Of a DNA stretch of 64,000 bases, positions 1 to 21,321 are shown one piece after another. The stretch is from an uncultured virus (IMG/VR IMGVR_UViG_3300027832_000011) (lineage: Duplodnaviria > Heunggongvirae > Uroviricota > Caudoviricetes). The stretch covers positions 1 to 64,000 of the IMG/VR virus record IMGVR_UViG_3300027832_000011. One strand, 5' to 3'. The notes beneath the pieces are model-generated. The model had not been told where the DNA came from, ran no database searches, and saw nothing but the letters and a program-made list of their open reading frames with translations. Each line of letters opens with the position of its first letter. The first letter of the stretch is position 1. The position numbers and the translations under genes are program-made.

Positions 1-42
1 CACGGGTTTGGCAAAATGGCTGTTTAGTTCTTCTATCAACAT
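1..42 (-). CDS. 5' end of an ORF starting inside the hairpin (MLIEELNSHFAKPV...), runs off window
   Basis: ATG at 42-40; same 14 codons as the N-terminus of ORF 3802-4491. Confidence 0.55.
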   Translation of the reverse strand, partial: MLIEELNSHFAKPV

Positions 43-116
43 TTGTTTTTAATTTTTAAGTTTAGTTTTTCAATTTAGCATTCGGTTCAGCCACTTCGCC
101 AAGCCCGAACCCGTTA
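1..116. repeat. attC-like hairpin, exact direct-repeat copy of 4450-4565 (left end cut by window)
   Basis: 116 nt identical to 4450-4565; arms cgggtttggcaaaatggctg / cagccacttcgccaagcccg; ends in GTTA. Confidence 0.9.
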
Positions 117-908
117 GTGGCAATACTCCAAAGCCCTCCGAACAGCTATATCGAAATATTGTTTTTCCTTTTCTATCCCTATTGATTTGCGATTTAATTT
201 GATACAAGCCAAATTAGTTGTCCCTGACCCCATCGTATTGTCTAAAACTATATCGCCTTTATCAGTATAAGATTTCACAAGCATTTCAAGTAAAGCAATA
301 GGTTTTTGTGTCGGGTGAATAGTTCCATCAAGTTTAGTTTTCTGTTTATCCGAAGCAAATACTTGTACGCTTCGTGGGTATCTATCAGTTTCTCCACCAC
401 CGCTTACGTCTTGTTTTACTTTTCCATATACTTCTGTTTTATTACAAACTTCCGCTCTTTTTGTATAAGTATTTATAGGGCTATGCCCTTCGGTTTTTTG
501 TGGGTTAAACTTTGGGCTTTTCTTATAAAACACTAAAATATTTTCGTGTGCTTTCATAGGCATTTTCTTTGCGTTAAAATATCCAGTTGCCTGTGTTTTC
601 TCCCAAATCCATTCGTATTTTAACCATTCTAAATTTGAGCATCCAAGCACTTTATCAAATGGTGTTTGAGCAAATAAAATCACTACCCCATTTTTTTTAA
701 GTATTCTTTTGTATTGCTCCCAAAGTTTTCCCAAATCTAAAACCGAATCCCATTTGCAGTTAGTAGTTCCGTAAGGTAAATCACAAATTATGGCATCAAT
801 AGTATTGTCCTCTATAAAAGGAAAAATATCGAAGCAATCAGCATTAAGAAAAGTACTGCCACTAACATCGGTTTGGCAAAATTGGGGGTTTATTGGTTTA
901 TTAAACAT
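114..908 (-). CDS. DNA methyltransferase, N4-C/N6-A (beta class)
   Basis: DLPYG catalytic motif, HPTQKP, VLDNTMGSGTT SAM-binding motif, IGIE. Confidence 0.93.
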   Translation of the reverse strand: MFNKPINPQFCQTDVSGSTFLNADCFDIFPFIEDNTIDAIICDLPYGTTNCKWDSVLDLGKLWEQYKRILKKNGVVILFAQTPFDKVLGCSNLEWLKYEWIWEKTQATGYFNAKKMPMKAHENILVFYKKSPKFNPQKTEGHSPINTYTKRAEVCNKTEVYGKVKQDVSGGGETDRYPRSVQVFASDKQKTKLDGTIHPTQKPIALLEMLVKSYTDKGDIVLDNTMGSGTTNLACIKLNRKSIGIEKEKQYFDIAVRRALEYCH

Positions 909-988
909 TTATGATTTTAATTAACATTAGTGATAATTTGAGCGTTTCGTTTTCAAAGCCCCCAACTTCGCCAAGTCGAGGCTTGTTA
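863..988. repeat. attC-like hairpin
   Basis: TAAC-atcggtttggcaaaattggggg ... cccccaacttcgccaagtcgaggctt-GTTA. Confidence 0.85.
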
Positions 989-1192
989 GGCGACAGCTTC
1001 CACTACCGCAGAAAGTAAGCCGTAAAATTCAGGATTTCCACAATTTGGGCAAACTAAATTAGTCCAACCTTCACTATCTTTTTGCTTTGCTTTTTGTTCG
1101 TCTGTACCTTGCCATTTACATTTCTTTTTTGAGCATTCGTAATGTGTGATTTTAACTTTATCAGACATTATTGAGTATTTGCGTTTTGCCAT
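986..1192 (-). CDS. small Zn-ribbon-like protein
   Basis: CxxxxC...CPNC. Confidence 0.7.
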   Translation of the reverse strand: MAKRKYSIMSDKVKITHYECSKKKCKWQGTDEQKAKQKDSEGWTNLVCPNCGNPEFYGLLSAVVEAVA

Positions 1193-1464
1193 TACGATTG
1201 ATTTATAGTTTCAGAATCTTCATACAAAGGCTTTCCAATAAATGGGCAAAATTTTGCGTAAACCATCATTTCTTTGTAAGTCTTAGAATAGTTTTCTCCT
1301 TTTTTTGTTCGATACATACACGGTATCATTAAATGCCTGCCTTCTGTACTTCCTAAGAAAAAAGTTGAAGCATTAAAACCCGCTTGAGGGTCGTTTGTTT
1401 TTTCTCTAACTGCTTTTTCAGTTTCCGTAATTGCACTCCAATTTTCTGAAATTTTCTTTTCCAT
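1192..1464 (-). CDS. hypothetical phage protein
   Basis: 90 aa ORF coupled to 986-1192; FCPF motif. Confidence 0.7.
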   Translation of the reverse strand: MEKKISENWSAITETEKAVREKTNDPQAGFNASTFFLGSTEGRHLMIPCMYRTKKGENYSKTYKEMMVYAKFCPFIGKPLYEDSETINQS

Positions 1465-1520
1465 TTTTGTATTTATTTAATAATTAATATTTGTTGTTGT
1501 AAATAAAAAGCCGAATCGCC

Positions 1521-1646
1521 TAACACGTGTTTTGCGACATTGTGAGTTTGCTGGTTCAATCGTGTTCAGTGTTCGCATTATATTTATTTTTGAGTTCATG
1601 TTTAATTTTTCCGAAGTTCACAACCTCGCAAAGCACGGAAACGTTA
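1521..1646. repeat. attC-like hairpin
   Basis: TAAC-acgtgttttgcgacattgtgag ... ttcacaacctcgcaaagcacggaaac-GTTA. Confidence 0.85.
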
Positions 1647-1655
1647 TAAGCAACC

Positions 1656-1976
1656 CTAAAACAAGCGTAACGACCTGAACCAATTTAAAATTCTATTCTT
1701 TTCACCGAGAGGATAACCCCATTTTCCAGTAACAATAAAGGCAAACGGTAACGCTATAAGCATTAGTAACATAAGCACAATTGCGAACGGTAACGTTAAT
1801 CGCATCCACACGTTTACAGGTGTCTTTTTTTCAGTGAAGAAATCAACTCCTAATTCTTGCCATCTATCACACATTTCTTCGCTAGGCACTTTGTTTAATT
1901 CAGGGAATATTTCTCTGAATTTTGGAATGTAATTCGCATCGTTGTGCGACCAAGTCCGTTTTAATTTTCTATACAT
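1656..1976 (-). CDS. hypothetical membrane protein
   Basis: 106 aa with one long hydrophobic segment. Confidence 0.7.
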   Translation of the reverse strand: MYRKLKRTWSHNDANYIPKFREIFPELNKVPSEEMCDRWQELGVDFFTEKKTPVNVWMRLTLPFAIVLMLLMLIALPFAFIVTGKWGYPLGEKNRILNWFRSLRLF

Positions 1977-2018
1977 ATTTTAGTTTTAATTGATTAATTC
2001 CGAAAGAAGGGCAGCTTA

Positions 2019-2081
2019 TAACCGCACCTACACGCAATTTTTGTGAAAAACAAAAACTGCAAGTGTAGCTGCGAAGCGTTA
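2019..2081. repeat. attC-like hairpin (short)
   Basis: TAAC-cgcacctacacgca ... tgcaagtgtagctgcgaagc-GTTA. Confidence 0.85.
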
Positions 2082-2091
2082 TAAGAAATAG

Positions 2092-2283
2092 CTAACTAAT
2101 ATCTATTTCATTACCACTTTTAGGATGAACTCGCATGTAATCGTCAGTTCCATCTAAAGATATTTTATTGATTGTTAATCTACCATCTATTGATTCAGAT
2201 AACCTATATCTATTGCCGTTTATCTCTATGGTAGCATTTCTAACTTCGATGTATTCTTCGTCCCTTTTTATTTGTATTTTCAT
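2092..2283 (-). CDS. hypothetical protein
   Basis: 63 aa ORF filling one cassette unit. Confidence 0.7.
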   Translation of the reverse strand: MKIQIKRDEEYIEVRNATIEINGNRYRLSESIDGRLTINKISLDGTDDYMRVHPKSGNEIDIS

Positions 2284-2318
2284 AATTACTTTTGGTTTAA
2301 TTTACCCGCTACTTCTTA

Positions 2319-2392
2319 TAACAGGTGTTTGTAAATACCAGCCGAATTTATGTTGGTGTGTAGGCTGGCATCTACAAGCAACGGGAACGTTA
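2319..2392. repeat. attC-like hairpin (short)
   Basis: TAAC-aggtgtttgtaaataccagcc ... ggctggcatctacaagcaacgggaac-GTTA. Confidence 0.85.
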
Positions 2393-2401
2393 TGTGCAAG
2401 G

Positions 2402-2839
2402 CTACTTCTCGTTTTCAAAACAACCTATTCTCTCAAGATAATTCTCAATTGTTTTCCAACAAGCAAATGGTCTTTGAGATAATTCTAAATTGTAAATTAA
2501 AGGGCAACCTAGCGCACTATCATCAATCATTAATTCAGCATAACTTTTCGGAGAAGTTGTCCAATTTAATTGTGTTGGATTTTTTTGAATACCGTAAAGT
2601 TTAATTTCATTTTGATTAAACCAATTTACAGCATCTGTTAAAAATTTACCTGTAACATTTTGAATTGTTGGGTCAATAACTGGTTTTGCTTCTTTTCTGT
2701 CTGAACGCATAGTAAATAATATTAATTGATGTCCGTTATCAACTAATCTTTTTAATACTTTTTCAGCACCAATACCTTTTCCAATATTTGGGAAATCGTG
2801 AGTTACACAAGTTCCGTCAAAATCAATATTTATTGTCAT
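2402..2839 (-). CDS. HAD-superfamily phage protein
   Basis: IDFDGT motif I, LILFT-R, MIDD motif IV. Confidence 0.8.
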   Translation of the reverse strand: MTINIDFDGTCVTHDFPNIGKGIGAEKVLKRLVDNGHQLILFTMRSDRKEAKPVIDPTIQNVTGKFLTDAVNWFNQNEIKLYGIQKNPTQLNWTTSPKSYAELMIDDSALGCPLIYNLELSQRPFACWKTIENYLERIGCFENEK

Positions 2840-2868
2840 AATTTAGTTTTAATTACCCGTCCAGCACA

Positions 2869-3141
2869 TAACAAGTGTTTGGCAAAAAAGCGGGTTTGGT
2901 TTATAATTCAAGTTTTTTTATTCTAATTGCGTTTATTGGTTTCTGAAAATCTCGTTTTCGAAATCCGCTTCTTCGCAAAGCACTCGGACGATGAGAAAAA
3001 GACTCCGTCTTTCCCTCATCAAGCCTCGACTACGTCGGACGACGAGAAAAGTCCTTTCAGTCCTTCTCTCATCTCCAACTTGGACTCATTTCTTTCGAGA
3101 GAAATCTCTCTCAGAAACGAAGACCAAGTCGAGGCTTGTTA
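2869..3141. repeat. compound attC-like hairpins with variant GAT/ATC cores and two ORF-less mini-units
   Basis: Hairpin 2869-2992 ends GATGAG; tcggacgaYgagaaaa at 2984 and 3035; ttcYctcatc at 3011 and 3064; ccaagtcgaggcttgtta at 3124 identical to 971. Confidence 0.7.
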
Positions 3142-3150
3142 TAGGAAATA

Positions 3151-3705
3151 TTATTTTTTCAGAACGTTCTCGAATACTATGACGTTTTCCAAAACATTAC
3201 TACATAAAAATACACTTGAAAAAGGTGGATTTAAACTTGGTTTTTGGTCGTCATAACTTTTAAAATAACTTATTCTTTTATCGAAATACATTACTTCAAT
3301 TTTATTATTCTTAAACATTTCAAATCGTTTTTTACTTTCAAACAATCCTACAACTCCAACAAGCATTGCAAATGGTATTCCTAATTCAAATAGTTTCAAA
3401 AAAACTTATGCTTTTATTGAGTAAGGTGGATTTGAAATAATATAATCAAAATTTTTACACTTTTCTTTATTTGCGTCAAAAAAATCAAAACCATCTTCAA
3501 TATGGCTATTGCTCACAATATGTCCTTGTTTGGTTAATAATTTCACAAAGTTACTTTCTTTAGTATCAAATGGACACCATATTTTACTATTTGATTTTAA
3601 GTGTTTTAATAATGGTTCAATCGCATAAGTTGGAGTGTAAAACTCATCATTTGGATTTATTTTTCCTTGCTTTTCAGCTTTGTTTGTAATCAAATCTAAT
3701 TTCAT
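3151..3705 (-). pseudogene. adenine methyltransferase-like gene (NPPY) interrupted by one in-frame TAA
   Basis: NDEFYTP, WCPFD, DFF, ISNPPYSIKA*VFLKLFELGIPFAML; ORFs 3406-3705 and 3151-3399 are in the same frame. Confidence 0.8.
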
Positions 3706-3743
3706 ATTTAGTTAATTTAGTTTATAAAAAATAATACATCCTA

Positions 3744-3804
3744 TAACAGCACCTAACCAAAATTTTTGCAAGGGCAAAAACTATCGGTTAGCTGCAAAAC
3801 GTTA
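3744..3804. repeat. attC-like hairpin (short)
   Basis: TAAC-agcacctaacc..tttttgc/gcaaaaa..ggttagctgcaaaac-GTTA. Confidence 0.85.
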
Positions 3805-4491
3805 TCGGCAAGCGTAAGACGACCACTGCACAGCCATAGCGTTTGCAATTCCATCAAATGTTTTGCTTCTTAATTTTGCTCTTTCATCTTTCGGTAACTT
3901 CCAAGCATCGGCATACCAAGTAGGCATACTTTTACCGCTCGCAAATTCAGTTCGTTTGGGTGGCTCAACAATATTTGTTGGTTCTAATTTTGGCAATCCT
4001 TTCAACCATAAGCAAGTCTTTTTTTCAAACGCATCGCCAAATTGATAAGGGTTTATAATTTGGTCAGGTTTTCGCCATTCACTACTCATTATGCCTACGG
4101 GGTTTTCAATCGCTATAAATTTGCAATCAGCATCAGCAAACATTTTAAAGAATTTAATTGCAAACTCTCTGTCTTTGTGCCTTTGTATTGCTTGTTCTCC
4201 ATAGCGTTCAATATTAAACCATCTATTCCCTGTTACGGTAATATAAGTGCAAGGCGGAAACGCAATTATCATATCCCATTTTAATTTTAGCAAGTCTGTT
4301 ACATCTTCTTGTAAATGCCATTCAGGGTGTCCACCACTTTCAGGCAGTAAATCACAGCTAAATGCTTCGTGTCCTAATTTGCGTAACTCCTTTGTAACAG
4401 ATTGGCTTTCCTCACAAGCAACAAGCACTCGGAGAACGCCAGCCGATAACACGGGTTTGGCAAAATGGCTGTTTAGTTCTTCTATCAACAT
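3802..4491 (-). CDS. phage DNA cytosine methyltransferase-like protein
   Basis: VLVACEES, SCDL, AFPPCT (PC motif), IENP, KKTCLWL, RSKTF. Confidence 0.8.
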   Translation of the reverse strand: MLIEELNSHFAKPVLSAGVLRVLVACEESQSVTKELRKLGHEAFSCDLLPESGGHPEWHLQEDVTDLLKLKWDMIIAFPPCTYITVTGNRWFNIERYGEQAIQRHKDREFAIKFFKMFADADCKFIAIENPVGIMSSEWRKPDQIINPYQFGDAFEKKTCLWLKGLPKLEPTNIVEPPKRTEFASGKSMPTWYADAWKLPKDERAKLRSKTFDGIANAMAVQWSSYACR

Positions 4492-4565
4492 TTGTTTTTA
4501 ATTTTTAAGTTTAGTTTTTCAATTTAGCATTCGGTTCAGCCACTTCGCCAAGCCCGAACCCGTTA
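4447..4565. repeat. attC-like hairpin, identical to 1-116
   Basis: Exact direct repeat; contains the ATG (4491) of the neighbouring gene. Confidence 0.9.
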
Positions 4566-4632
4566 TATGAAATAGGGTGGCAGAGCTTCGATTGAACATT
4601 CTGTTAGAAAAATCAAATAAAAGCCCAACCAC

Positions 4633-4698
4633 TAACAGCATATATAAAAAATGGTGGGTTCGCTATTTACGTAACAGACACAAAGCGATGGACCGTTA
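4633..4698. repeat. attC-like site with non-matching (chimeric) arms
   Basis: TAAC-agcatatata ... gatggacc-GTTA; arms pair poorly. Confidence 0.6.
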
Positions 4699-4702
4699 TA
4701 GG

Positions 4703-5038
4703 TTATTTTAGAACAGACCCTAATAAGTCCAACATTTCCTCAATAGACCAATCTTTTTTTACAAATTTGTAAGACCCATTTTTTAACTCTTTAAATTTTG
4801 GGAAAAGGTAAAATTCGTGAATAACGCTTCTAAACTCTTTACCTATAAAAGAAATTTCATACCCTGTTTTTTCAAAGTGTTTGTTTAATTTATTTGACAG
4901 TCTTGTGCATTTGTTTTCTGTGTCGGCTTTTTGCCAGCACTTTAAAAACGGAATATATTTTCCTTCTTCCCAAAGCGGGTAAGTGATAAATTCTTCACTT
5001 ATGAATGGTATTAATTTTTCTATTTTTTGATTTATCAT
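4703..5038 (-). CDS. hypothetical protein
   Basis: 111 aa ORF filling unit 4695-5077. Confidence 0.7.
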   Translation of the reverse strand: MINQKIEKLIPFISEEFITYPLWEEGKYIPFLKCWQKADTENKCTRLSNKLNKHFEKTGYEISFIGKEFRSVIHEFYLFPKFKELKNGSYKFVKKDWSIEEMLDLLGSVLK

Positions 5039-5073
5039 ATTTTTAAATTTAATTCGTGAATAAAAACAACCTA

Positions 5074-5150
5074 TAACGCACGCTTGGTAAAAGTGGTGGT
5101 TTGAAAATTTGCGCTTCTATGCCCCACCTGACACAAACCCGAAAACGTTG
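5074..5150. repeat. attC-like site (degenerate)
   Basis: TAAC-gcacgcttggtaaaagtgg ... ccacctgacacaaacccgaaaac-GTTG. Confidence 0.65.
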
Positions 5151-5174
5151 TGTGTAAGACTAAGATTTCCTTTA

Positions 5175-5360
5175 TTAACACGATTGGTCGCATCCGTTAC
5201 CTAAACAACAAGATAATCCACACCAACCTGTTTTATTATCGTAAATTTCATCACATTCTTCGCAAATATCTTTTCCAGTGTATTCACCATATTTATCACA
5301 ATACTCATCGCATCCTTCGCAATATAATTGACATTGTTATGTTTTTTCGTAACTTTTCAT
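5175..5360 (-). pseudogene. Cys-rich small protein gene with TAA at codon 8 (not in ORF track)
   Basis: MKSYEKT*QCQLYCEGCDEYCDKYGEYTGKDICEECDEIYDNKTGWCGLSCCLGNGCDQSC*. Confidence 0.65.
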
Positions 5361-5399
5361 AATATATTTAGTTTTATAAACCCACCAAGCACTAGGACG

Positions 5400-5669
5400 T
5401 TAGTGGTAATTTAATAGAACGGCAGACTTTAGATTACTCGCACCATCTGACGTGTCTATAAACATTCCATAATTGAAGTAAAGATTATTTTTAGTTTGTA
5501 AAATAATTTCCTTTGTTCTTGTCTTTACTTCAACAATTTCAAACACCTTAAATCGAAATGATTTTCTTGGGTAGTCGTGCATATCTCGGTGAAATTCACA
5601 AGCTATTGTGTCGCCTTTTTGCAAACCTTCAAAGTCTGCTACTGTTTTTAATTCTTTACTTTGTATCAT
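5400..5669 (-). CDS. hypothetical protein
   Basis: 89 aa; stop codon is the TTA of a GTTA core at 5399. Confidence 0.7.
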   Translation of the reverse strand: MIQSKELKTVADFEGLQKGDTIACEFHRDMHDYPRKSFRFKVFEIVEVKTRTKEIILQTKNNLYFNYGMFIDTSDGASNLKSAVLLNYH

Positions 5670-5844
5670 TTTTGGTACTTTACGAGTGTTTTGTCGATTA
5701 AAAATCTAACCTTAAATCTTCCTAAATTGTCAGTTTTTATAGTTTGTTTGGAGTTCTCCCCAAGTCTATTTTTAAAATCTATTGCGTGTTTTTCACTATA
5801 AAAAACTTTAGTCGCATATTTTTGAATCCCTTTCATAATTAAAG

Positions 5845-6339
5845 CTACTTATAATATTGGTGAATAGAATGTCGTTTTTCGTTTTGAGAATCAATTTTAT
5901 TAGAATGCCCGATAAACCATATTCCATTTGATTTTTTACACCACAATTTTTTATTATTTACTGTTCTTTGAAAAATCCCATCAGTTTCTTTTTCTTTTCT
6001 TGTATTGAAAGCATTCCATTTGTATTTACCGTAGGCAATAAATAACGTTATAGTTGATTCTCCTTTTATCTCATCAATTCTATGATAACAGGAATGCTTT
6101 CTTTTTATAATTGATAAAAAACCATGGCTACGCACTTTTTCAATCTTATTCTCTATAAAAGTTTCACTGTACCCACCTTTTAAAATTATTGATATATAGT
6201 TGAATGGGTGATTATGAAAAAGAGTTGTTCTGTCTTTATCAGTAATTTTATGTAATCTTATATGTAAATTTCTGATTTTTACTAAAGTGTATCTCTGTAA
6301 AAAATCTTTAATGTTTGTGTATGGTTTGAATAAAGTCAT
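5845..6339 (-). CDS. cupin-like phage protein
   Basis: LH...FHNHPF..ISIILKGGYSE...HRI...TLF pattern. Confidence 0.65.
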   Translation of the reverse strand: MTLFKPYTNIKDFLQRYTLVKIRNLHIRLHKITDKDRTTLFHNHPFNYISIILKGGYSETFIENKIEKVRSHGFLSIIKRKHSCYHRIDEIKGESTITLFIAYGKYKWNAFNTRKEKETDGIFQRTVNNKKLWCKKSNGIWFIGHSNKIDSQNEKRHSIHQYYK

Positions 6340-6508
6340 TCTATTAAAATTTATTGTTTAATAATCCGAAACGAGAGCATAACAACACCTAAACAAGATG
6401 ATTGGCTCGGTGCTTCGTTTTAAAGTTTATCGTTTGAATTACCCATTGTTCTTCTTATTAAAATCAACCACCTCGTTTAGCTTCGAAAAGTAACTGTCTA
6501 TGCTGCAA

Positions 6509-6859
6509 TTAAGTAATTAAGAAAATTTTAAAATCTAATAGTTGCTTTTCCGCTTCTTCTAAAGTGTGAAAGCTTCCTAACCCTATTGTTTTACCTTTAA
6601 ACTCCATAGACACATAAAACAATCTGTTTTTTTTATTATAATATATTCTTTTTGGCATTATTTTACTATGTTCATTATAAAATAATTTACTAAATTCAGA
6701 ATAAATATTATAATCTAAATCTTCAATACCTGTGCTTTTACCTAAAGATAATTGTTTTTTATTAACTCTATCGTAAAATTTTATATACCCGTTAATGTCT
6801 ATTCTGATAAATTTCATAATATTTTTTATTTTTAAAACCCGCACAAATGATAACAGCAT
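6509..6859 (-). CDS. AP2-like DNA-binding domain protein
   Basis: C-terminal FYVSMEFKGKTIGLGSFHTLEEA. Confidence 0.55.
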   Translation of the reverse strand: MLLSFVRVLKIKNIMKFIRIDINGYIKFYDRVNKKQLSLGKSTGIEDLDYNIYSEFSKLFYNEHSKIMPKRIYYNKKNRLFYVSMEFKGKTIGLGSFHTLEEAEKQLLDFKIFLIT

Positions 6860-6941
6860 ATTTGCGCTATTGCCGTACTAGGATTTGGTTGTTATTTTGT
6901 ATTTCAATAAATTCGGTATTTTATAACTTCAGGTAGGTTTT

Positions 6942-7220
6942 TTACATTAACTTTATTTTAAGGTTTTTAAGTATTTCTTTCCCAATTATCACATCAACTT
7001 CTTTATGATGTTTTATGTCGTCATATTGCTCTTTAAATTGCCATTCGCACTTATCTTTTATTTGTTCTGTGTATCCATCACGTATTACACCATACACTGA
7101 TTGTAACGCATATTCCTCATCCTTTATAGTATCATCATAAACATATCCTTTAATGTTTTGGGAAAATATTTTCTGAATATCAATTTCAACTTCTGTTTCT
7201 ATTTTAAACTTCATTACCAT
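6942..7220 (-). CDS. hypothetical protein
   Basis: 92 aa ORF in array. Confidence 0.65.
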   Translation of the reverse strand: MVMKFKIETEVEIDIQKIFSQNIKGYVYDDTIKDEEYALQSVYGVIRDGYTEQIKDKCEWQFKEQYDDIKHHKEVDVIIGKEILKNLKIKLM

Positions 7221-7348
7221 AATAAAAGCTACTTATAACAGCAATTACACGCAATTGCTACATTGTGATTAATTTAATGTTTATTTTGTACCTTTCAAAT
7301 CCGTGTTAATCTGAAAGATGGGTTTTGTGTTTTTACGCAACGGGAATG

Positions 7349-7636
7349 TTAGCGGTAATGCTTCCTAAAATACCATAAACAAGCAGTTAATGATTCCCAT
7401 CCTATTTCTTCACCAACTCTAATCCAAGTATCTCTATCAAACTCCGCACCTTCCCATCTGCTTGTATATTTCTTTATTACCTCAAGATTGTTTTTTGTCA
7501 ACCCAAATGTAACTTTAGCACTACCAATAACATCGGTTTTATTCAATTCCGAATCTTGTGGTATATTCAAATCTTCCTTCATAATTACGTTTTGTTTAAA
7601 ATTAAAATTTAGTTTTTTAAGTTCGGTACTAAACAA
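7349..7636 (-). CDS. hypothetical protein (true start possibly the later ATG, MKEDL)
   Basis: stop at GTTA core 7348; N-terminus (LNKTDVIGS) read through a hairpin arm. Confidence 0.6.
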   Translation of the reverse strand: MFSTELKKLNFNFKQNVIMKEDLNIPQDSELNKTDVIGSAKVTFGLTKNNLEVIKKYTSRWEGAEFDRDTWIRVGEEIGWESLTACLWYFRKHYR

Positions 7637-7815
7637 AGCCGAAAATCTTATCGGTAAGGATTATTAAAATCTATTTCGATAACCATATATCGTTTGATAG
7701 TTATAGTTGGTTTAATATGTGGATACTTTAGTAATTCTAACAATCTTCTTATCATAATTTAAACTTTTGTATTTCAATGCCGCTACTGACAGCAACACTC
7801 GAACGTTATGACCAA

Positions 7816-8121
7816 TTATCTAACCGAAACCTCGACCCAATAACAACCGCTTATGTTTGAAAGTTTATTCCATCTTTCAAATTTAGTGTGAATATGTTCA
7901 TCAGATATCCAAGTCATTATTCCGTATTTTTGCGTCTCAAATTGTTTATAATAGGCTTTCCATTTTTTTAAAATTTTATTAAATTTGGTACAATATTTAG
8001 TAGCTGTTGTTTTCTTACTTGTTGTGAAAATTACAACGTCAAAGTCATTTTCATAACTTCCACCCGAATATCTAACCAAGTAATAACTGGTCATAACGGC
8101 TTGTTTATTCAATTGTGGCAT
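7816..8121 (-). CDS. hypothetical protein
   Basis: 101 aa; unit bounded by GTTATGACCA/TGGTCATAAC. Confidence 0.7.
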   Translation of the reverse strand: MPQLNKQAVMTSYYLVRYSGGSYENDFDVVIFTTSKKTTATKYCTKFNKILKKWKAYYKQFETQKYGIMTWISDEHIHTKFERWNKLSNISGCYWVEVSVR

Positions 8122-8146
8122 GGTTGATTAATTTATTGATTAGTTA

Positions 8147-8290
8147 ATTTTTGTTATTGTTAAATCTCTCATAAGTCCTATATTTTAGTGTTTCGCTTTA
8201 TTGCTGGTGTAAAGATACAACCAATATTTATATAAACAACACTTTTTTGTGATTATTTTTAAAATATTTACTAATTTAACATAAATCAGC
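8147..8290 (-). promoter_or_regulatory. repeated promoter-like block (copies at about 9586-9670 and 10256-10400)
   Basis: ~140 nt near-identical to 10256-10400; minus strand carries TTGTATCTTTAC resembling the Bacteroidota -7 box. Confidence 0.65.
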
Positions 8291-8502
8291 AACGTTGCGA
8301 AGCAAATTACCGTTATGTGTAATGGCTACGGAACATCTACCCAAGCCGCTGCTATTTTGAAACTTAATTCTTTTTTTAGAGTCTAATTTTGAAAATACTT
8401 CTATTATTTGATTTGTTTTCATAAATTTAAATATTTTTATATGAAATTAGTAACTGTAAATATAACTTTCCAAATTTTACCACTTATTATAGCTGTGAAA
8501 CG

Positions 8503-8832
8503 TTATAACTCAGTTGTCGTACTACCAAAATCTTCGAGTTTTTTTAATTGCTCATAATGTAAAGCCTTTAATAAGTAATCAAACCCACTAAATTGATAAA
8601 GAGAGTCTTTAAGTCTATTGAAATAACTGTCAAATTTAATAATTTCATCAAAAGTCAAGTCTGGTAATTCTTTAGATAAATAACCTTTAAAAAATTCAAA
8701 TCTTTTTTTAAATTCTTCATTAGTTCCTATGTCGGCAAAGTTTAATCTATTACCCGAGCTGTCTGATGACATTTTATCTATCAAATCGTCAAGTGAAGCG
8801 CATTTTAATAATAAGTTTTCTTCTATTTTCAT
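8503..8832 (-). CDS. hypothetical protein
   Basis: 109 aa; stop at GTTA core 8502. Confidence 0.7.
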   Translation of the reverse strand: MKIEENLLLKCASLDDLIDKMSSDSSGNRLNFADIGTNEEFKKRFEFFKGYLSKELPDLTFDEIIKFDSYFNRLKDSLYQFSGFDYLLKALHYEQLKKLEDFGSTTTEL

Positions 8833-8930
8833 AATTTTTGTGATTTAAAAAGCCTAAGTGATAACAATGGATAATACTAATTAAGTTCTCGTTACGTCTT
8901 CTTATTATAACTACAAAACGTTAGTAGTGA

Positions 8931-9128
8931 TTACCTATTAATGGTAAGTTGAAGACGTTTTATTCTACCTAACCAAACATCTCTATAGCAAACATTACTA
9001 CCAACAGCATATATAAATTCAATTCCTTTTTGATTTAATAACATTTCTTTTCTTTGCTCGTATTTTAGTGCTTTTTTACAGCAATAGTTTATAAGCTGTC
9101 TAACTAAATATTGTTTTATTTTACTCAT
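8931..9128 (-). CDS. hypothetical protein
   Basis: 65 aa ORF in array. Confidence 0.55.
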   Translation of the reverse strand: MSKIKQYLVRQLINYCCKKALKYEQRKEMLLNQKGIEFIYAVGSNVCYRDVWLGRIKRLQLTINR

Positions 9129-9281
9129 ATTTTGTGTGTCATAACTAACGCTAAAAGTATAATACTAATTACAGCATCGGTCTTTAATTTATAGTTTGTT
9201 TTGTGTTTACCCCGTTTAACCCAAAAATTTGTCTGTACTTATCGGTAACAGCGCAAGATATATGAAACGTTATGTGAGATG

Positions 9282-9533
9282 CTAGTAGGAATCTAAAAAC
9301 ACCTCAAAATCATCTCTTTTTAACGAACCATAATTTTGTTTTTTATGCCATTCAAAAAAATCATTAAACATTTTTTTTCTTAAATCATAATCTTCTTTTG
9401 GTGGAACTATTGAATTATCTTCATTAAAAAGAAATTCAATAATATGTGTTGCAATTTCTCTTTCTGTTTTTTCATTTTTTTCTGAAATAATAATTCCAGT
9501 TAATACGTTTGTCAGCTCTTTTATCGTCCTCAT
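9282..9533 (-). CDS. hypothetical protein
   Basis: 83 aa ORF in array. Confidence 0.65.
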   Translation of the reverse strand: MRTIKELTNVLTGIIISEKNEKTEREIATHIIEFLFNEDNSIVPPKEDYDLRKKMFNDFFEWHKKQNYGSLKRDDFEVFLDSY

Positions 9534-9585
9534 TTTGTTTTAATTTGTTAATTACTAAAAAGCACAATATTTGTTTATTTCTATG

Positions 9586-9670
9586 GCGTAAAGATACAAC
9601 TAATAGTTATATAAAAAATACTTTTTCATGATTATTTTTAAAATATTTACAAATTAAAAATAAACAGCGG
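9586..9670 (-). promoter_or_regulatory. diverged copy of repeated promoter-like block
   Basis: gtaaagatacaactaata...attatttttaaaatatttac...taaacagcgg shared with the other two copies. Confidence 0.6.
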
Positions 9671-9719
9671 TTAACATCACATAAGTGCAACCAAAAGGTA
9701 TGCACCTATGTGTCAACCG

Positions 9720-9965
9720 TTATAAAGAATTATACATCTCGATTAACAACTTATCTACAACTAAAATAGCTTTCTTTTTATCTGAAAAACACTTACCACC
9801 TAAAAACAAATCTAATTCTTCGCATGTCGCAAATTCACTTATGTAATCATATTCATCATCATTAATCCACCAAGCTGCCTTAATTGCATCATCAAATGCG
9901 TCAGTAACCCCGCCAAACCCCTTGATGATTATGTCAGTTCTATTCTTTCTACCTTGTCTACTCAT
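9720..9965 (-). CDS. hypothetical protein
   Basis: 81 aa; unit bounded by GTTATAAAGA/TCTTTATAAC. Confidence 0.7.
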   Translation of the reverse strand: MSRQGRKNRTDIIIKGFGGVTDAFDDAIKAAWWINDDEYDYISEFATCEELDLFLGGKCFSDKKKAILVVDKLLIEMYNSL

Positions 9966-10005
9966 AATAACTCTTTATAACAGCAATTACTGCATTTTGA
10001 TTAAT

Positions 10006-10281
10006 TTAAAGTTGGGGAATCACCCTTTCAATTCCGTTATCTACAATATCTAAATCGGAATAACAAAGATAATGCCTTGTTATCGTTTTTTGATGTATAA
10101 TTCGAATGTCTAAATGTTCATATCCGTCTTTACCTAAAATATATTTCATCCCTGCTTTTACATCAACTTTTGAAGAAGCTAGAAACCCATTGTCATAATA
10201 TTTAACAAATTTTAGTTTATGAGTTTTACAATATTCTTTTATTTTTACCTTCAAAATTTTTGTTGTTGTTAAATCCATCAT
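10006..10281 (-). CDS. hypothetical protein
   Basis: 91 aa directly downstream of the promoter block. Confidence 0.65.
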   Translation of the reverse strand: MMDLTTTKILKVKIKEYCKTHKLKFVKYYDNGFLASSKVDVKAGMKYILGKDGYEHLDIRIIHQKTITRHYLCYSDLDIVDNGIERVIPQL

Positions 10282-10400
10282 AAGCCCTATATTTTAGTGT
10301 TTCGCTTTATTGCTGGTGTAAAAATACAACTAATATTTATATAAATAATACTTTTTTGTAATTATTTTTAAAATATTTACTAATTTAACATAAACAGCGG
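10282..10400 (-). promoter_or_regulatory. copy of repeated promoter-like block
   Basis: near-identical to 8173-8290. Confidence 0.65.
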
Positions 10401-10442
10401 TTTTATTCAATTGAGAGTTTACTTGTAAAACGTTAGGCACAA

Positions 10443-10658
10443 TTAAGTCACACCTAACCAATTTCCGTTTTCATCGCACAATACCATATCATTACTAAAG
10501 TACGCAGATACTTTATCTTCTTCCCCGTAAGGTTTGAAGTAAAGTTGTCCATCGTATTTTTTATAAACTTGGTGAACACCATCTTTTTGTACATCAACAA
10601 AACTCCCTTCTTTAACTTCATTATCAAATTTATCGGTACATTTTATATATTTTTCCAT
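10443..10658 (-). CDS. hypothetical protein
   Basis: 71 aa; unit bounded by GTTAGGCACA/TGTGCCTAAC. Confidence 0.7.
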   Translation of the reverse strand: MEKYIKCTDKFDNEVKEGSFVDVQKDGVHQVYKKYDGQLYFKPYGEEDKVSAYFSNDMVLCDENGNWLGVT

Positions 10659-10816
10659 AAATAACTGTGCCTAACAATATGTATAAGCAATAGCTGTTAG
10701 GTATTTTTAACTATTGCGGTTGTTTAATTATTTATTTTGGTTCTATTTACTAACTTATGCGAGATGCCACACGAACCGCATAGCGTGAGCATTGGAGTTT
10801 TTAAATGTGTTATCGG

Positions 10817-11188
10817 TTATTTTAGAGTAACGTTTTCCAAAATGTTAAGTTCTTTAAACTTTAAATAAACAATCATTTTTTCTTCATCAGTAAAATTCTT
10901 AAAGTTGAACCATTGTCCAATAAATTGTCTTTCATTTTCTTTTCTTACTTTAATTAAAACTTCCTCTGTTTGTAGAAACCATTTTCTATATCTGTCTCCA
11001 TATTCACAAAAACTTGTTTTTGTGTTATGCCATTCCGTAGTAGGTTCATTTATTATTTTTCTACCGTTAGACAAAACCGCTTGTGTTTTTGTCAGTCTTA
11101 CAACTTCACCAAGTATGTAATTAATTCTTCCTGTCCATCTTGAAGTTTCTGCGATATATATTTTATCGCCTATTTTTAATTTTTCCAT
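10817..11188 (-). CDS. hypothetical phage protein
   Basis: 123 aa, LKIGDKI...VVRLTKTQAVL SH3-like start. Confidence 0.7.
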   Translation of the reverse strand: MEKLKIGDKIYIAETSRWTGRINYILGEVVRLTKTQAVLSNGRKIINEPTTEWHNTKTSFCEYGDRYRKWFLQTEEVLIKVRKENERQFIGQWFNFKNFTDEEKMIVYLKFKELNILENVTLK

Positions 11189-11262
11189 TTTATTTTTGAT
11201 TTAGTTTGTTGTTAAAATAACCAACTTCTTATGGCTGTAAAATGTTATAAGAAATAGCTATG

Positions 11263-11463
11263 TTAATAGTCCCCAGATAAATATTCAATTACTTGAGGTT
11301 TATTAATCACCATTTCATTAACGACCATTTCTGAAGTATGGGTAATCGTTTTTATCGCCATTTCTTCAGCTTGTTCTTGATTAAATGCTGCTAATACTAA
11401 ACAATTCCCCACTGGGTACACCCCATTAAATTCTACTCTATATATTTTCAACCGTTCAATCAT
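11263..11463 (-). CDS. hypothetical protein
   Basis: 66 aa ORF in array. Confidence 0.65.
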   Translation of the reverse strand: MIERLKIYRVEFNGVYPVGNCLVLAAFNQEQAEEMAIKTITHTSEMVVNEMVINKPQVIEYLSGDY

Positions 11464-11520
11464 AATTTTAAATATTAATTTGTATTTGTGATTGTGAGGG
11501 TAGTTTTTAATTTGGTAAAA

Positions 11521-12141
11521 CTACTCATGCCTTCCAATCGTTAATTTATTTTTTAAAATATCTTTTATTTCTAGCAACGAAAATATACTATACTCCCCAA
11601 ACATATTGTAATAACTGTCAACCCCCACGTCCATAGTCTTGTATTTGTGAACTTCTTTCATTATGGTATTTTCATCCCCATGTAAGTGTCCGTGTAAATG
11701 AAAAGACCCCTCGTCTTGATTGTTCCAATTGAATTGTGGGTAATGTGAACAACTAATAAATTGTTTATCTACAAATAATTCTAAATAATCCCCAGTATGT
11801 AACAACTTTTCTATTTGACAATCAGTAACAACTTTTAGTAGCTTCCCTCTGTTACAGTGATTCCCAAACAACATAATCACATTTTCACACTTAATCCCAA
11901 GTAAGAATTCCACATAATTCTTTTCTCCCATCATAGTATCCCCAAGTAAAACTAATAAGTCGTTTTTCTCAACTTTCCGATTAATCTCCGCAATTAAATC
12001 ACTATTCATTTCTTCTACACTACCAAAATCTCTCCCGAATTTGATGACCGCTTCGTGATTTAAATGTAGGTCAGAACTGAAAAATACGTTATCAACTTCA
12101 ATGGTTTTCTTGGGATATGTTGAATTTATTTTAATTTTCAT
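11521..12141 (-). CDS. calcineurin-like metallophosphoesterase
   Basis: SDLHLNH, LGD, GNH, SHYP, HGHLH, DVGVD. Confidence 0.9.
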   Translation of the reverse strand: MKIKINSTYPKKTIEVDNVFFSSDLHLNHEAVIKFGRDFGSVEEMNSDLIAEINRKVEKNDLLVLLGDTMMGEKNYVEFLLGIKCENVIMLFGNHCNRGKLLKVVTDCQIEKLLHTGDYLELFVDKQFISCSHYPQFNWNNQDEGSFHLHGHLHGDENTIMKEVHKYKTMDVGVDSYYNMFGEYSIFSLLEIKDILKNKLTIGRHE

Positions 12142-12189
12142 AAGTTTTAATTTTATTGTTAATTTTTACCTAAACAGGTTAATTTAATA

Positions 12190-12197
12190 CAAAGATA
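12190..12197 (-). promoter_or_regulatory. Bacteroidota-type -7 promoter box (TATCTTTG)
   Basis: matches TAnnTTTG upstream of 12141; same box at 14143, 15972, 17045, 17318, 18199, 20011, 21357, 22397, 25252, 34554, 40794, 42344. Confidence 0.7.
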
Positions 12198-12266
12198 GTA
12201 ATTATTTTTAATTATACAACTATAATGATTATAAATAAGGTTATCACAAGACAAAACCTCAGGACG

Positions 12267-12584
12267 TTATGCGCAACTTATGTCAGTAATTGTAATTATA
12301 TCTTGTTTGTGATATTGGTCGGTTATTATATTTGGTTCGCTATGAAAATCAGTTACTCTAATGTGAACTTCATTTTTAGTGAAAAGTATGGGGTACCTAA
12401 TACTTCCAGCGTTTTTAGAAAAAGACCCTTTAATTATTTTTACGTTTTTATGTAAGTACAACCCTTTGTATTTATCATTTTTAGCAACTAAGCAAGTTTT
12501 TCCGTTATATATAACTCGCATATCATCAAGCGTGCAGTTTTCCCTTTTGTACGGCTTAATTATTAATGTAAATGAATGTTTCAC
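12267..12584 (-). CDS. hypothetical protein
   Basis: 105 aa; stop at GTTA core 12266. Confidence 0.6.
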   Translation of the reverse strand: MKHSFTLIIKPYKRENCTLDDMRVIYNGKTCLVAKNDKYKGLYLHKNVKIIKGSFSKNAGSIRYPILFTKNEVHIRVTDFHSEPNIITDQYHKQDIITITDISCA

Positions 12585-12585
12585 A

Positions 12586-13050
12586 TTATAATTGGTAAAA
12601 TTGCTTAATTAATCCTTCGTGTTTTTCCATAAATTCAGCTGCAATCTCGAGAGTGTTAAATGTTAAAAAGTTAAATGTGTTGGAATAAACTTGAATACTT
12701 AATTGATTTTCATAAATTTCTAGGCAATACTTACTATTTGATTTACCCCAGTCAACATCACAATCTCCACAATCATACATTAATTGTGTTAATTGCGCAT
12801 AAGCTAATGTGGATTTTGCTTGTTTTTGTGTTTTAAAAACGTTTTTGTTTACTACACTTGTGATTATCGAAAATGAAGTTTTTGAAATACAAGAGACTTC
12901 TTCAATATAGTAACCATCTATTTCATCTAATTGCTCCCAACTATCCGCAACCTTTGAGGGTTTTAATTCAGGATAATCTATGTAAATTTCAGTAGCCATT
13001 TCAGGCATTTTGTTAAGCATTATTAAAGCTTGTTCTTTTGTTATTTTCAT
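12586..13050 (-). CDS. hypothetical phage protein
   Basis: 154 aa, A.AQL.QLM...DW...FL.F...A..F pattern. Confidence 0.7.
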   Translation of the reverse strand: MKITKEQALIMLNKMPEMATEIYIDYPELKPSKVADSWEQLDEIDGYYIEEVSCISKTSFSIITSVVNKNVFKTQKQAKSTLAYAQLTQLMYDCGDCDVDWGKSNSKYCLEIYENQLSIQVYSNTFNFLTFNTLEIAAEFMEKHEGLIKQFYQL

Positions 13051-13143
13051 TTTATATTAATTTAGTTATTATTCCGACAGCTAAGGTAGTTGGGTACTTG
13101 ATGTTACCAGCAAGGGATAAACCGTTAATAGAGATAGCTACGT

Positions 13144-13350
13144 TTAGTAATTTTCAAGCTCTTCTTTTACCTCTACCCACCACTCTTTACCCAAGAAAGA
13201 ACCAAATGGTTTGATTGCATTTATAATTTCATCAACTAAAATTAACGCACATATAACAGCATCTTCCGTATATATTGTAGTGCTATTATTTTTGAATAAA
13301 TCACCTTGTATTTTATTTACTATTTGTTTTGCTTTTTCTTTTGGTTCCAT
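13144..13350 (-). CDS. hypothetical phage protein
   Basis: PKEKAK...CALILVDEII...W.EVK.E pattern. Confidence 0.7.
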   Translation of the reverse strand: MEPKEKAKQIVNKIQGDLFKNNSTTIYTEDAVICALILVDEIINAIKPFGSFLGKEWWVEVKEELENY

Positions 13351-13578
13351 AGTTACTTTTGAAAGATTGTGTTCTTAAATTTCATCAAAATTTGTTACGA
13401 TTTTAATTTTACATTATTTAAGTCGTAACTGTTTTAACATATTCAACATATTCAACCTCTTTTTCAATAATTCTTTCATAATCTTATATTTAGTAAACCG
13501 TTTTACGGGTTTTTGTGGTTAATTGGTATTTATGTTACTCGAAGGTATTTTATTTACTAAATTATATAGTTAAACCAA

Positions 13579-13923
13579 CTATTTGTTATGGTCAATCGTT
13601 ACGTGATGCTGTGCGACCCAAAAAACAACAGCTTCGTAGACCGCGTCAAGTTTGGTTTCACCAACAAATTCCATATCACCTAATTGGACGCAATTACCGA
13701 AAATATCAAGTTCGTTATCATCCCCACCAAAACTTTCTATTTTAATAACAACAGGCATCAACTCATCCCAAGTATTGTAAAATGGTAATCCATCATAATC
13801 TTTAAATTCTAAATTATTGTAATAATAATATTCACCACCTGTATTCACGCTTATACCTTTAATGGGGGTAATCCCCATAAACCTTGCTATTTTTAACGTA
13901 TTTTCTGTGTATTCGTATTTCAT
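13579..13923 (-). CDS. hypothetical phage protein
   Basis: IARFMG...WDELMPVV.KIE pattern. Confidence 0.7.
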   Translation of the reverse strand: MKYEYTENTLKIARFMGITPIKGISVNTGGEYYYYNNLEFKDYDGLPFYNTWDELMPVVIKIESFGGDDNELDIFGNCVQLGDMEFVGETKLDAVYEAVVFWVAQHHVTIDHNK

Positions 13924-14413
13924 TTCTTATATTTTAAAATTACCTTTAAAACCCCTATTTTTAAAATTTAATTTTTCTTTAGGTTTTTTATTTTTAAAAA
14001 TAATTTTATTTAAGTTAAAGAAATAAAATAATTCCCTAAATAAATAAATAAACATACATATTATTATAATTTTAACCACCATTGTTTTACATATTTTAGG
14101 GTTACAGTTCCATCAAATAAAGGTTTTAACTTTACCATGATACAAATGTACTTATTTTTTTTTAAATAACCAAATTTATTTTTTAAATGTATTAGTAAAT
14201 AAAGCTGAATTTATAACCATCAAAAATAATGTGGTGCTGGATATGATAAAACATTTTACTAAAATTACTATACATAACGAAATTAATGTGTCTAATTCAC
14301 TCTCACCATTTTTAATTGAAAACTCAGATATTGGTAATGTGAATGCCCAAATTAATATCCCAATGAAAAAAAATGTTTTAATAATGTTATGGTTAAAAGT
14401 TGCGATTTTATAT

Positions 14414-19583: not shown

Positions 19584-19659
19584 ACTTTTTCATAATAGCG
19601 ATATATTATAAAACTTAAAAGACTATAGACTAAATGATTCTAAAATCAAAAAGGTCTAG

Positions 19660-19999
19660 TGGAGATAGAGGGAATCGAACCCTCGTGTAAGATACTTTTC
19701 AATAACTTTCTACATGTTTACCTAGTTTACTAAAACTAGTAAATCTTTTTAAATGTTTATAAAGTGTTACATCTATTCACTTAATCTATTTAACCATTAG
19801 ATTTCATGGTAATCGTAATACTATTTCTTAGGCAATAGTAACCTCTCTGTTTAACGTACCCATTTGAGCACCTTCGAAGATGTTTTCTGAAATACTAAAA
19901 GTATCTGCGTTTAAATTTTTTATAGTTTTTTTAAGTGATACTAAATAACACTACATGCTTATTATCTAAAACTATACCATATCGATACCAGTTACCCCC
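19660..19999 (-). ncRNA. ssrA: tmRNA (transfer-messenger RNA)
   Basis: 5' GGGGGTAACTGGTATCGA; 3' T-arm GAGGGTTCGATTCCCTC then TATCTCCA; acceptor stem with G3:U70; internal tag ORF ADTFSISENIFEGAQMGTLNREVTIA* (19908-19828). Confidence 0.92.
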
Positions 20000-20815: not shown

Positions 20816-20892
20816 AAATTTATTTTTTTTAATTATACAATTTTCTCAACAAATATTAGGGTAGAATATATTTAAACTACCCTACATATTAT

Positions 20893-21321
20893 CTACTTTT
20901 TATTTTTTTCTTTCTCAGCAAGATAAAGAGTTTTAATCGACTCTGTTAATACCTCATAATTTTCATATGTGTATTTCTTAAGGATAGAACTAAATGTTTT
21001 AACATCTGGTGTTAACATTATAACAGCATCTTTATCGCTATCATAAGAAACCTTAGCTAATTCTTCCTCCAATACCATGCGAGGAAACCTAGCGTTAGCC
21101 ATTTCTAATTGGTCAAAGATAGTCTCATTAATGAAAAGGTAGAAATCATTACCAGTCTCATGTTTTAATAGTGGTGTTGATTTTTTAATCTCCACAACAT
21201 TTTTTAGTGTATTATCAACTAAGACCTTAATCCTAATACCCATTCGCTCGATAATCGTGTTGTTTAACACCTCATTAAACATTTCAACTATTCCATCGTG
21301 TGCCTCATCAAATTTTGCCAT
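20893..21321 (-). CDS. hypothetical phage protein
   Basis: 142 aa with upstream TAAGTTTG box. Confidence 0.7.
   Translation of the reverse strand: MAKFDEAHDGIVEMFNEVLNNTIIERMGIRIKVLVDNTLKNVVEIKKSTPLLKHETGNDFYLFINETIFDQLEMANARFPRMVLEEELAKVSYDSDKDAVIMLTPDVKTFSSILKKYTYENYEVLTESIKTLYLAEKEKNKK

Follow-up and report, generated by a model that had tools for sequence, protein, structure and literature searches.

Positions 1 to about 13,350 of the window, the 64,000-nt stretch of viral DNA analysed here, in all likelihood form the distal part of an integron-like cassette array of a large T4-like phage of Bacteroidota, in which cassettes are exchanged at a GTT core, probably by a Xer-like tyrosine recombinase. 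The sites are clear in the left 8 kb and weaker further right. The window is the first 64 kb of the 76,017-bp IMG/VR record IMGVR_UViG_3300027832_000011, an uncultured member of the Caudoviricetes whose record is classed as linear, and the array begins at record base 1. On the + strand each cassette would extend from between the G and the TT of one GTT core to the same point of the next and would hold one or two minus-strand genes followed by an imperfect palindrome of 55-135 nt (Table 1).

The ends of the units display a distinctive pattern of complementarity. All 11 motif pairs that a first-pass annotation of this DNA had listed as unit-specific inverted repeats were recovered at their positions, each as a forward motif and its reverse complement, and the forward motif GTTATAAGAA has an additional copy at 11244. 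In the left 5.2 kb, which has 10 hairpins, complementarity was counted contiguously outward from the GTT/AAC cores. The two ends of one unit are complementary over 9-10 nt in eight of nine consecutive units, the sole non-pairing unit being 4562-4636, which contains no open reading frame (ORF). In contrast, the outer ends of one hairpin match over 0-5 nt in eight of nine cases and over 8 nt in the other, where the neighbouring units are similar. The chance of a match of at least 9 nt is ~0.0008, as estimated from 200,000 random GTT/AAC pairs drawn from the window. Both sides of this pattern had been described in the first-pass annotation, and the hairpins also fold as it had claimed, with 55-125 nt between the cores, plus a single composite of 266 nt.

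A covariance model (R1), the kind of check which that annotation had proposed, was built from four window sites and a hand-set structure with 21 pairs. At E<0.05 it returned 13 sites, each of them on the + strand and none outside 1-8320; the other strand of these sites scores ~100 bits lower. Elsewhere in the 64 kb R1 found nothing at E<0.2, and an Rfam scan of 1-14,500 at E<=1 matched no family. A cluster of attC sites lacking an integron integrase (CALIN) is recognised by two or more neighbouring attC sites with no integrase nearby. The record has 13 sites, as called by R1, and no recombinase, but its contig starts inside the array. The region right of 8.4 kb is taken to be decayed or atypical. 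A crude fold scan, in which every AAC...GTT pair was taken with its cores forced to pair, was discarded as unspecific, having produced matches throughout the 76 kb.

On the + strand, the 5' side of the site consists of a cassette-specific box ending in TAAC, an A and a stem of ~10 bp (consensus nnnG TTTGGC). The middle portion comprises a 4x4 internal loop with AAAA opposite CTTC, an upper stem and a variable loop, and the 3' side is formed by GCCAAG nnnn, a bulge of 4-5 nt (often AAAAC), C-GTTA and the box of the next cassette. Boxes of the attC type, RYYYAAC and GTTRRRY, are present. TAAC...GTTA is invariant in at least 148 of 150 sites, while length and loop vary (55-135 nt). These 150 sites, which come from 22 viral and 8 bacterial loci in addition to the window, also constituted the covariation set. 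Standard pairs occupy 94.3% of the pair cells of the alignment, against 29-45% in controls with slid partners, and double-sided changes were counted in 712 cells against 202 in shuffles. In 127 of the 150 sites the better fold is that of the complement of the model strand (mean -16.96 versus -14.94 kcal/mol), because AAAA/CTTC turns into GAAG/TTTT, which can pair through G-T wobbles, and four window sites folded singly agree. An interpretation of the + strand as the bottom strand, based on extra bases in the 3' arm, was rejected since the other strand folds better. On the folded strand AAC is followed by G in 146 of the 150 sites, as it is on the attC bottom strand in the relevant part of Bouvier et al. 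2009 (PMC2727003). The sole asymmetry of the predicted folds is the 4-5 nt bulge, on the R' side next to the exchange core. Stem covariation and the predicted energy difference between the strands are both compatible with recombination of a folded single strand.

A tyrosine recombinase (PF00589) is encoded in 12 of 53 viral records with sites. In eight of the 53 (G001, G002, G003, G016, G021, G025, G043 and G051) a recombinase gene of 265-302 aa abuts the array, always on the flank equivalent to the window's left and on the strand of the cassette genes. The first-pass annotation had suggested an integrase outside the window, to be looked for on its left, or a host enzyme; these eight complete related elements bear out the side, while the 76-kb record itself contains none. 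The recombinase start codon lies 20-55 nt downstream of the first GTTA, and in five of the eight TATATAnnTA stands before this GTTA. The short recombinase scores best on the XerA / 'integron integrase' model, under cut-off, and its match to TIGR02249 comes in two stretches with 150-170 bits versus a cut-off of 265. When aligned to VchIntIA (2a3v) it has 37 aa where IntI has 85, and its alignment to XerA-type structures is in one piece. Judged by these alignments, the linked enzyme is Xer-like and without the IntI-specific insertion, the additional domain (I2 helix) by which integron integrases are defined. Close homologues are very numerous in metagenomes, where the source name is XerD. Ten bacterial loci have homologues at 30-50% identity next to sites, and in a 17-row tree the phage enzymes fall in at least two groups among the bacterial ones. 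Two complete phage elements (L127, L131) have a 29-nt 'empty cassette' as their first unit past the junction, immediately upstream of the recombinase start; it is made of GTTAT plus 4 nt, 11 nt, and the complement plus AAC. The window contains a 75-nt ORF-less unit at 4563-4636.

The properties of the enzyme and of the folds bear on the alternative that survives best, although it is improbable, namely that these are attC sites of the ordinary kind, recombined by a classical integron integrase of the host with the IntI insertion, and that the Xer-like neighbour is a bystander. The RYYYAAC and GTTRRRY boxes, the G after AAC in 146 of 150 sites and chimeric ends that obey the attC rules (PMC2727003, in the part that treats them) all conform to it, as does a passage of Qi et al. 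2023 (PMC9892861) in which IntI1 recombined attC sites of a Polaribacter phage. A classical integrase is at odds with the recombinases, however, as all 18 that abut arrays (8 viral, 10 bacterial) are short and no tblastn alignment contains the 50-aa insertion. The predicted folds, which have no single-base bulges on the R''-L'' arm, also argue against it.

In the preferred reading, exchange at the core by the Xer-like enzyme, the folded gene-sense strand would be cut between the second A and the C of AAC, beside the bulge, as in the integron bottom strand. Recombination between two sites would release a circle in which both ends of one cassette are paired, and this proposed pairing would explain the 9-10 nt complementarity specific to each unit. 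The circle could then be reinserted, either into another site or into an attI-like junction next to the gene for the recombinase. The most likely enzyme would be a Xer-like tyrosine recombinase of 265-302 aa, of the type encoded next to these arrays in other phages and on Bacteroidota chromosomes. Since the contig contains no recombinase and starts inside the array, the enzyme would be encoded further left or supplied in trans by the host or a co-infecting phage.

Sites of this family are present in many viral and bacterial sequences. A search pattern composed of the two conserved blocks of the site occurs in more than 125 IMG/VR stretches and in more than 125 stretches of Bacteroidota genome contigs, and among the matches listed are Flavobacterium, Chryseobacterium, Riemerella, Pedobacter, Chitinophagaceae, Saprospiraceae, Cytophagales and a few other labels. 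In viral loci R1 gave 318 matches, distributed over 75 loci in co-oriented arrays. Comparison of all loci yielded 22 high-identity pairs in different contexts, and the ends of 12 were inspected. Nine of these begin and end at (C)GTTA / TAAC cores, with the hairpin of the gene-start side included, and three have one or both ends away from the core. Window 3797-4569 is 91% identical in two viral loci (L077 and L008) whose flanks are unrelated on either side, and cassette 7 including its hairpin is 89-92% identical in other viral contigs (L077, L008, L054, L015), where the flanks differ. Thus, the limits of the shared cassettes define a cassette as the TT side of the core, the gene, a box ending in AAC, the hairpin and the closing G, the gene-start hairpin travelling along. 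A cassette made of a hairpin and the unit to its right was rejected, since the hairpin of shared cassettes is found at the opposite side. The cassette at 3802-4562 is also 89% identical in a 142-kb record (G004) whose replicative helicase is only 28% identical to that of the window phage, which indicates exchange between distant phages. The 124 bacterial loci contained no informative shared cassettes, and comparison of the window with bacterial loci gave a single hairpin-sized match (>=140 nt).

Cultured Flavobacterium phages of the genus Muminvirus have sites that match window 4442-4570 with 89% identity. The complete genomes of mumin6-1, filifjonk9-1 and tooticki6-1 have common blocks that are 99.6-100% identical and differ by cassette-sized insertions, deletions and replacements. 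The first-pass annotation had named breakpoints away from the core as an observation that would speak against it; in these cultured phages of the same site family, all six inspected breakpoints are at GTTA directly after a hairpin. One Muminvirus cassette opens with the same bases as the methyltransferase cassette of the window. At the level of sequence, these comparisons support site-specific movement of the cassettes of this family at the GTT core. Sections of Nilsson 2020 (PMC7077304) report 15 methyltransferase genes among 35 genomes and a particular methyltransferase that tracks plating efficiency in cultured Muminvirus; the same sections make no mention of an integron or hairpin. As a separate observation, the same first 17 nt (GTTATAAGAAATAGCTA) occur in the window cassettes at 2078 and 11244 and in the first filifjonk9-1 cassette (L262 ~1651).

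The position of the breakpoints bears on a second, slightly less probable alternative, in which the hairpins are regulatory repeats (promoter, leader or terminator) of early genes and shuffling results from homologous recombination between them, as has reportedly been suggested for the stem-loop cassettes of T4-type phages. The contig is T4-like, a leader-like repeat of 140 nt is present in three copies, the hairpins precede genes, and start codons are located inside the hairpin loop at window 908 and 4491, in the annotated gp006 of mumin6-1 and in two further loci (L126, L124). Homologous exchange, however, would scatter breakpoints over the ~130-nt repeats, whereas the breakpoints of the isolates are at the 5-nt core in 6 of 6 cases, and nine of the 12 shared pairs have both ends at the core, the hairpins differing right up to it. 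Regulatory repeats also leave unexplained the cassette-specific complementarity of the ends and the presence of a recombinase with a fixed junction. In addition, a hairpin arm lies in different reading frames in two cassettes, so that its conservation is not explained by protein coding. The hairpins may have a regulatory role in addition to recombination.

In the integron norm, the ORF of a cassette is upstream of attC on the top strand and the promoter is at the integrase end. Orientation relative to the sites was set by one hidden Markov model for 37 viral loci with at least three co-oriented sites and for 16 bacterial loci; some of these share a contig, giving ~31 independent viral and ~13 independent bacterial contigs, and any prophages were kept in the bacterial set, as were any misclassified contigs in the viral one. 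ORFs run opposite to the sites in 37 of 37 viral loci (90,006 versus 9,780 nt) and along the site orientation in 16 of 16 bacterial loci (80,133 versus 16,218 nt). The window, with 5,703 nt of ORFs opposite to the sites and 702 nt in the same orientation, follows the viral rule. Thus, phage cassette genes are antisense to the integron norm, each being preceded by its site. In bacteria the recombinase is on the same side as in phages and is directed toward the array in eight of ten loci (L147, L163/L164, L166, L176, L187, L190 and L191 against L148 and L203), while the phage recombinase points away in eight of eight. A wider proposal, for which the case is evenly balanced, is that Bacteroidota phages, from 35-kb siphoviruses to T4-like phages of >200 kb, share a mirror-image cassette pool of their own, characterised by a gene-sense hairpin and an insertion-less recombinase. 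If this is true, unrelated phages would trade anti-restriction methyltransferases and early genes apart from the pool of their hosts, with the same site family, and the hairpin could double as the leader of the gene.

The gene content of the record is that of a phage. PHROG matches comprise a baseplate wedge subunit, both ribonucleotide reductase subunits, a DnaB/primase-like protein, an exonuclease, a UvsX-like recombinase and a gp32-like single-strand-binding protein. The record also encodes SbcC/SbcD, a primase, a sigma factor, a ClpP-like protease, DnaJ, RNase HII, a GIY-YIG nuclease and an amidase, and nearly all genes, of the array and the phage part alike, are on the minus strand. Judged by these genes, the contig is a large T4-like phage of Bacteroidota, and its hosts are probably Flavobacteriia-type. 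The term 'jumbo phage' used in the first-pass annotation would be an extrapolation solely from the CheckV completeness of the 76,017-bp record, an estimate of 22%. Helicase identity between the window phage and large array-bearing records is only 28-42%. An exact 40-nt string from 181-220, used for leftward extension, was unmatched in metagenome contigs. Three freshwater sequencing runs contain at least 96% of the words sampled, and two of the runs may be the source of the contig. Direct terminal repeats are present in 5 of 48 viral array records checked. That a bacterial array was joined to phage DNA in the metagenome assembly is very improbable: the array is at the contig end, with a 113-nt exact repeat at the very end, and GC is 33-35% in 1-6 kb versus 26-32% further right, but arrays of the same site family occur in cultured, completely sequenced Flavobacterium phages and in viral records with terminal repeats, the window gene orientation (5,703 versus 702 nt) is viral-type and the reverse of bacterial, the cassette proteins match phage families, and array and phage genes are all on one strand.

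Several points weigh against an integron-like array of this phage moved by the linked enzyme. PF00589 has no match in the 76-kb record, 41 of the 53 viral site records are without a tyrosine recombinase in the available DNA, and the same holds for 17 of 20 viral array records rated at least 90% complete. The recombination of the sites by the short Xer-like enzyme is the most likely assignment and is drawn from adjacency. The predicted folds have equal L-stem arms and no extrahelical single-base bulges on the R''-L'' arm; without the extrahelical bases used by integron integrases, the mechanistic analogy may fail in detail. The covariation alignment was fitted to the model, which favours structure, although the margin is large. 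Between 8.4 and 13.35 kb, GTTA cores and two inverted-repeat pairs are readable and R1 is at noise (E 0.39-5.3). The exchange point is resolved to within the 5-nt CGTTA rather than to the bond. For this phage itself, recombination is extrapolated from the cassettes of other phages, and a search with two neighbouring proteins gave no close relatives in which cassette order could be compared.

A phage attC array is not new in kind, because such arrays were published by Qi et al. 2023 (PMC9892861), which in the relevant part describes 17 phage attC arrays without integrase and a few phage integrons, one of these finds being in a Polaribacter phage, with methyltransferase cassettes among the cargo. 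The statement of the first-pass annotation that integrons are not normally described as phage accessory modules needs revision in view of that part of the paper. Its proposal that attC-type recombination moves phage accessory genes holds for the array on a phage contig and for movement at the GTT core, but the system is not a classical integron. Like classical integrons and CALINs, it has small promoter-poor cassettes, imperfect palindromic sites with RYYYAAC / GTTRRRY boxes, GTT-core exchange with chimeric sites and, in phages, methyltransferase cargo. Similarly to classical integrons, complete elements have a tyrosine recombinase gene and an adjacent integration junction at one end. In contrast to classical integrons, the recombinase is without the IntI insertion, the sites have no extrahelical bases and a 4-5 nt bulge beside the core, the phage genes are antisense with the site at the 5' end of the gene, sometimes with the start codon, and the phage recombinase is co-directional with the cassettes and downstream of them. 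The insertion is not fully conserved within the integron-like subgroup, according to part of Smyshlyaev et al. 2021. No description of the short recombinase, the absent extrahelical bases or the reversed cassettes was found in the literature outside subscription journals.

The Vibrio cholerae superintegron is a sedentary chromosomal integron with uniform V. cholerae repeat (VCR) sites. The present system resembles it in long arrays and homogeneous, lineage-typical sites of ~120-130 nt, and differs in host phylum, recombinase type, phage gene orientation and a site family common to chromosomes and many unrelated phages. In T4-type phages, Arbiol and colleagues reportedly described in 2010 promoter-stem-loop 'mobile regulatory cassettes', for which cassette-like shuffling is said to have been proposed. 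The stem-loops before small accessory genes in hyperplastic regions are alike, whereas the 5-nt exchange core, the end complementarity and the linked tyrosine recombinase point to site-specific rather than homologous exchange. Movement of small gene modules by Xer-type recombinases is reported for the pdif modules of Acinetobacter plasmids (part of PMC7399989). In contrast to Xer/dif modules, the sites described here are hairpins of 55-135 nt, with stems that covary rather than being conserved and a variable loop. The pdif sites are short, double-stranded and dif-like, and a dif-type core has two conserved arms around a spacer of 6-8 bp.

Integrons are commonly viewed as dependent on the IntI-specific domain and on extrahelical bases, as rare in Bacteroidota and as marginal elements of phages. 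The array suggests that integron cassette logic runs with a simpler Xer-like enzyme and another site asymmetry. The system appears common in Bacteroidota and their phages, the phage cassettes being back to front, and through it phages would be able to swap counter-defence genes rapidly by a dedicated pathway. A direct test is feasible, since cultured Flavobacterium phages are available that differ in their cassettes and show a plating phenotype linked to them.

Table 1 Features of the cassette array in the window. R1 values are scores of the covariance model; end match is the complementarity between the two ends of one cassette.
Feature	Coordinates	Strand	Content	attC-like site	Support
Truncated attC-like site	1..116	+		cut by contig start at C of AAC	R1 109.6 bits
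Cassette 1	114..985	-	N6/N4 DNA methyltransferase ORF 114-908 (264 aa), ATG (908) inside loop of site; ends GTTAGTGGCA / TGCCACTAAC	860-991	PF01555 4.7e-35; phrog_67 8.8e-71; R1 137 bits; 10-nt end match
Cassette 2	986..1643	-	ORFs 986-1192 (68 aa), 1192-1464 (90 aa)	1518-1649	phrog_38446 1.5e-35; R1 124.5 bits; 9-nt end match
Cassette 3	1644..2078	-	ORF 1656-1976 (106 aa)	2016-2084, short	phrog_36118 5.6e-30; R1 20.8 bits, E 0.012; predicted fold; 9-nt end match
Cassette 4	2079..2389	-	ORF 2092-2283 (63 aa)	2316-2395	R1 34 bits; 10-nt end match
Cassette 5	2390..3138	-	ORF 2402-2839 (145 aa), sugar isomerase-like	2866-3144, composite	phrog_1238 2.3e-27; R1 64.8 bits for 2864-2998; L041 matches 2386 to 2908 at 83%
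Cassette 6	3139..3801	-	ORF pieces 3151-3366, 3406-3705	3741-3807, short	R1 30.7 bits; 9-nt end match
Cassette 7	3802..4562	-	DNA methyltransferase ORF 3802-4491 (229 aa), ATG (4491) inside loop of site	4444-4568	phrog_757 2.3e-69; R1 132 bits
ORF-less short cassette	4563..4695	+	75 nt; ends pair no further than GTTA/TAAC	weak, 58 nt	R1 9.7 bits, E 7
Cassette 9	4696..5147	-	ORF 4703-5038 (111 aa)	5071-5153	R1 69.2 bits; 10-nt end match
Decayed-site stretch	5148..7805	-	six or seven small ORFs	6375-6497 (19 bits); 7240-7356 (14.6 bits); 7523-7655 (55.8 bits, core GTT changed to CTT); 7690-7806 (20 bits)	phrog_4786 for ORF 5845-6339
Cassette	7806..8312	-	ORF 7816-8121 (101 aa); ends GTTATGACCA / TGGTCATAAC	8176-8320, holds copy of 140-nt repeat	L046 matches 7804 to 8140 at 81%
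Distal decayed part	8313..13350	-	small ORFs including phosphoesterase 11521-12141; cassette limits uncertain	GTTA cores at 8501, 8921, 9269, 9719, 10432, 11244, 12257, 13122	phrog_547 4.1e-38; unit-specific inverted repeats 9719/9981, 10432/10675

The truncated site at the left end is the site of the cassette left of the window. Its 113 nt plus GTTA are identical to 4450-4565 (repeat family D2), and the sequence after GTTA differs. The contig starts at the C of AAC, where the cassette-specific flank of the internal copy begins, which is what a break of the assembly at the edge of a repeat would produce. The composite site of cassette 5 (~2864-3144) is a full hairpin whose first 3' half ends in GAT, not GTT, followed by ~140 nt with two short palindromes and by a second 3' half that ends in GTTATAGG and resembles the 3' half of the site at 860-991. 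The ORF pieces of cassette 6 are possibly a broken gene; ORF 3406-3705 has weak methyltransferase matches (PF07669/PF13651/PF02384), all under cut-off, and is a probable methyltransferase fragment. The cargo of the array includes two intact DNA methyltransferases (114-908 and 3802-4491), the sugar-isomerase-like protein, the phosphoesterase and small phage-family proteins of no known function. The methyltransferases probably counter host restriction.

Many cassettes start with GTTRRRRGCAA..GCTA, which places the TAG stop of the gene 13-16 nt from the core. A direct repeat of 140 nt is located at 8146-8285, 9525-9664 and 10255-10394, the later copies being 94% and 67% identical to the first, and each copy is just upstream, in the gene sense, of a small minus-strand ORF (starts 8121, 9533 and 10281). 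The repeat is possibly a common leader or promoter module in or beside decayed sites. Outside the array, the ClpP-like protease, a full DnaJ (J domain, zinc finger and C-terminal domain) and the sigma factor are encoded at window 20078-22369 and 33096-33941. A transfer-messenger RNA gene is located at window 19657-19999 on the minus strand, with a tag peptide predicted by ARAGORN and a score of 63.1 bits for Rfam RF00023 (gathering score 47; E 2.7e-22).

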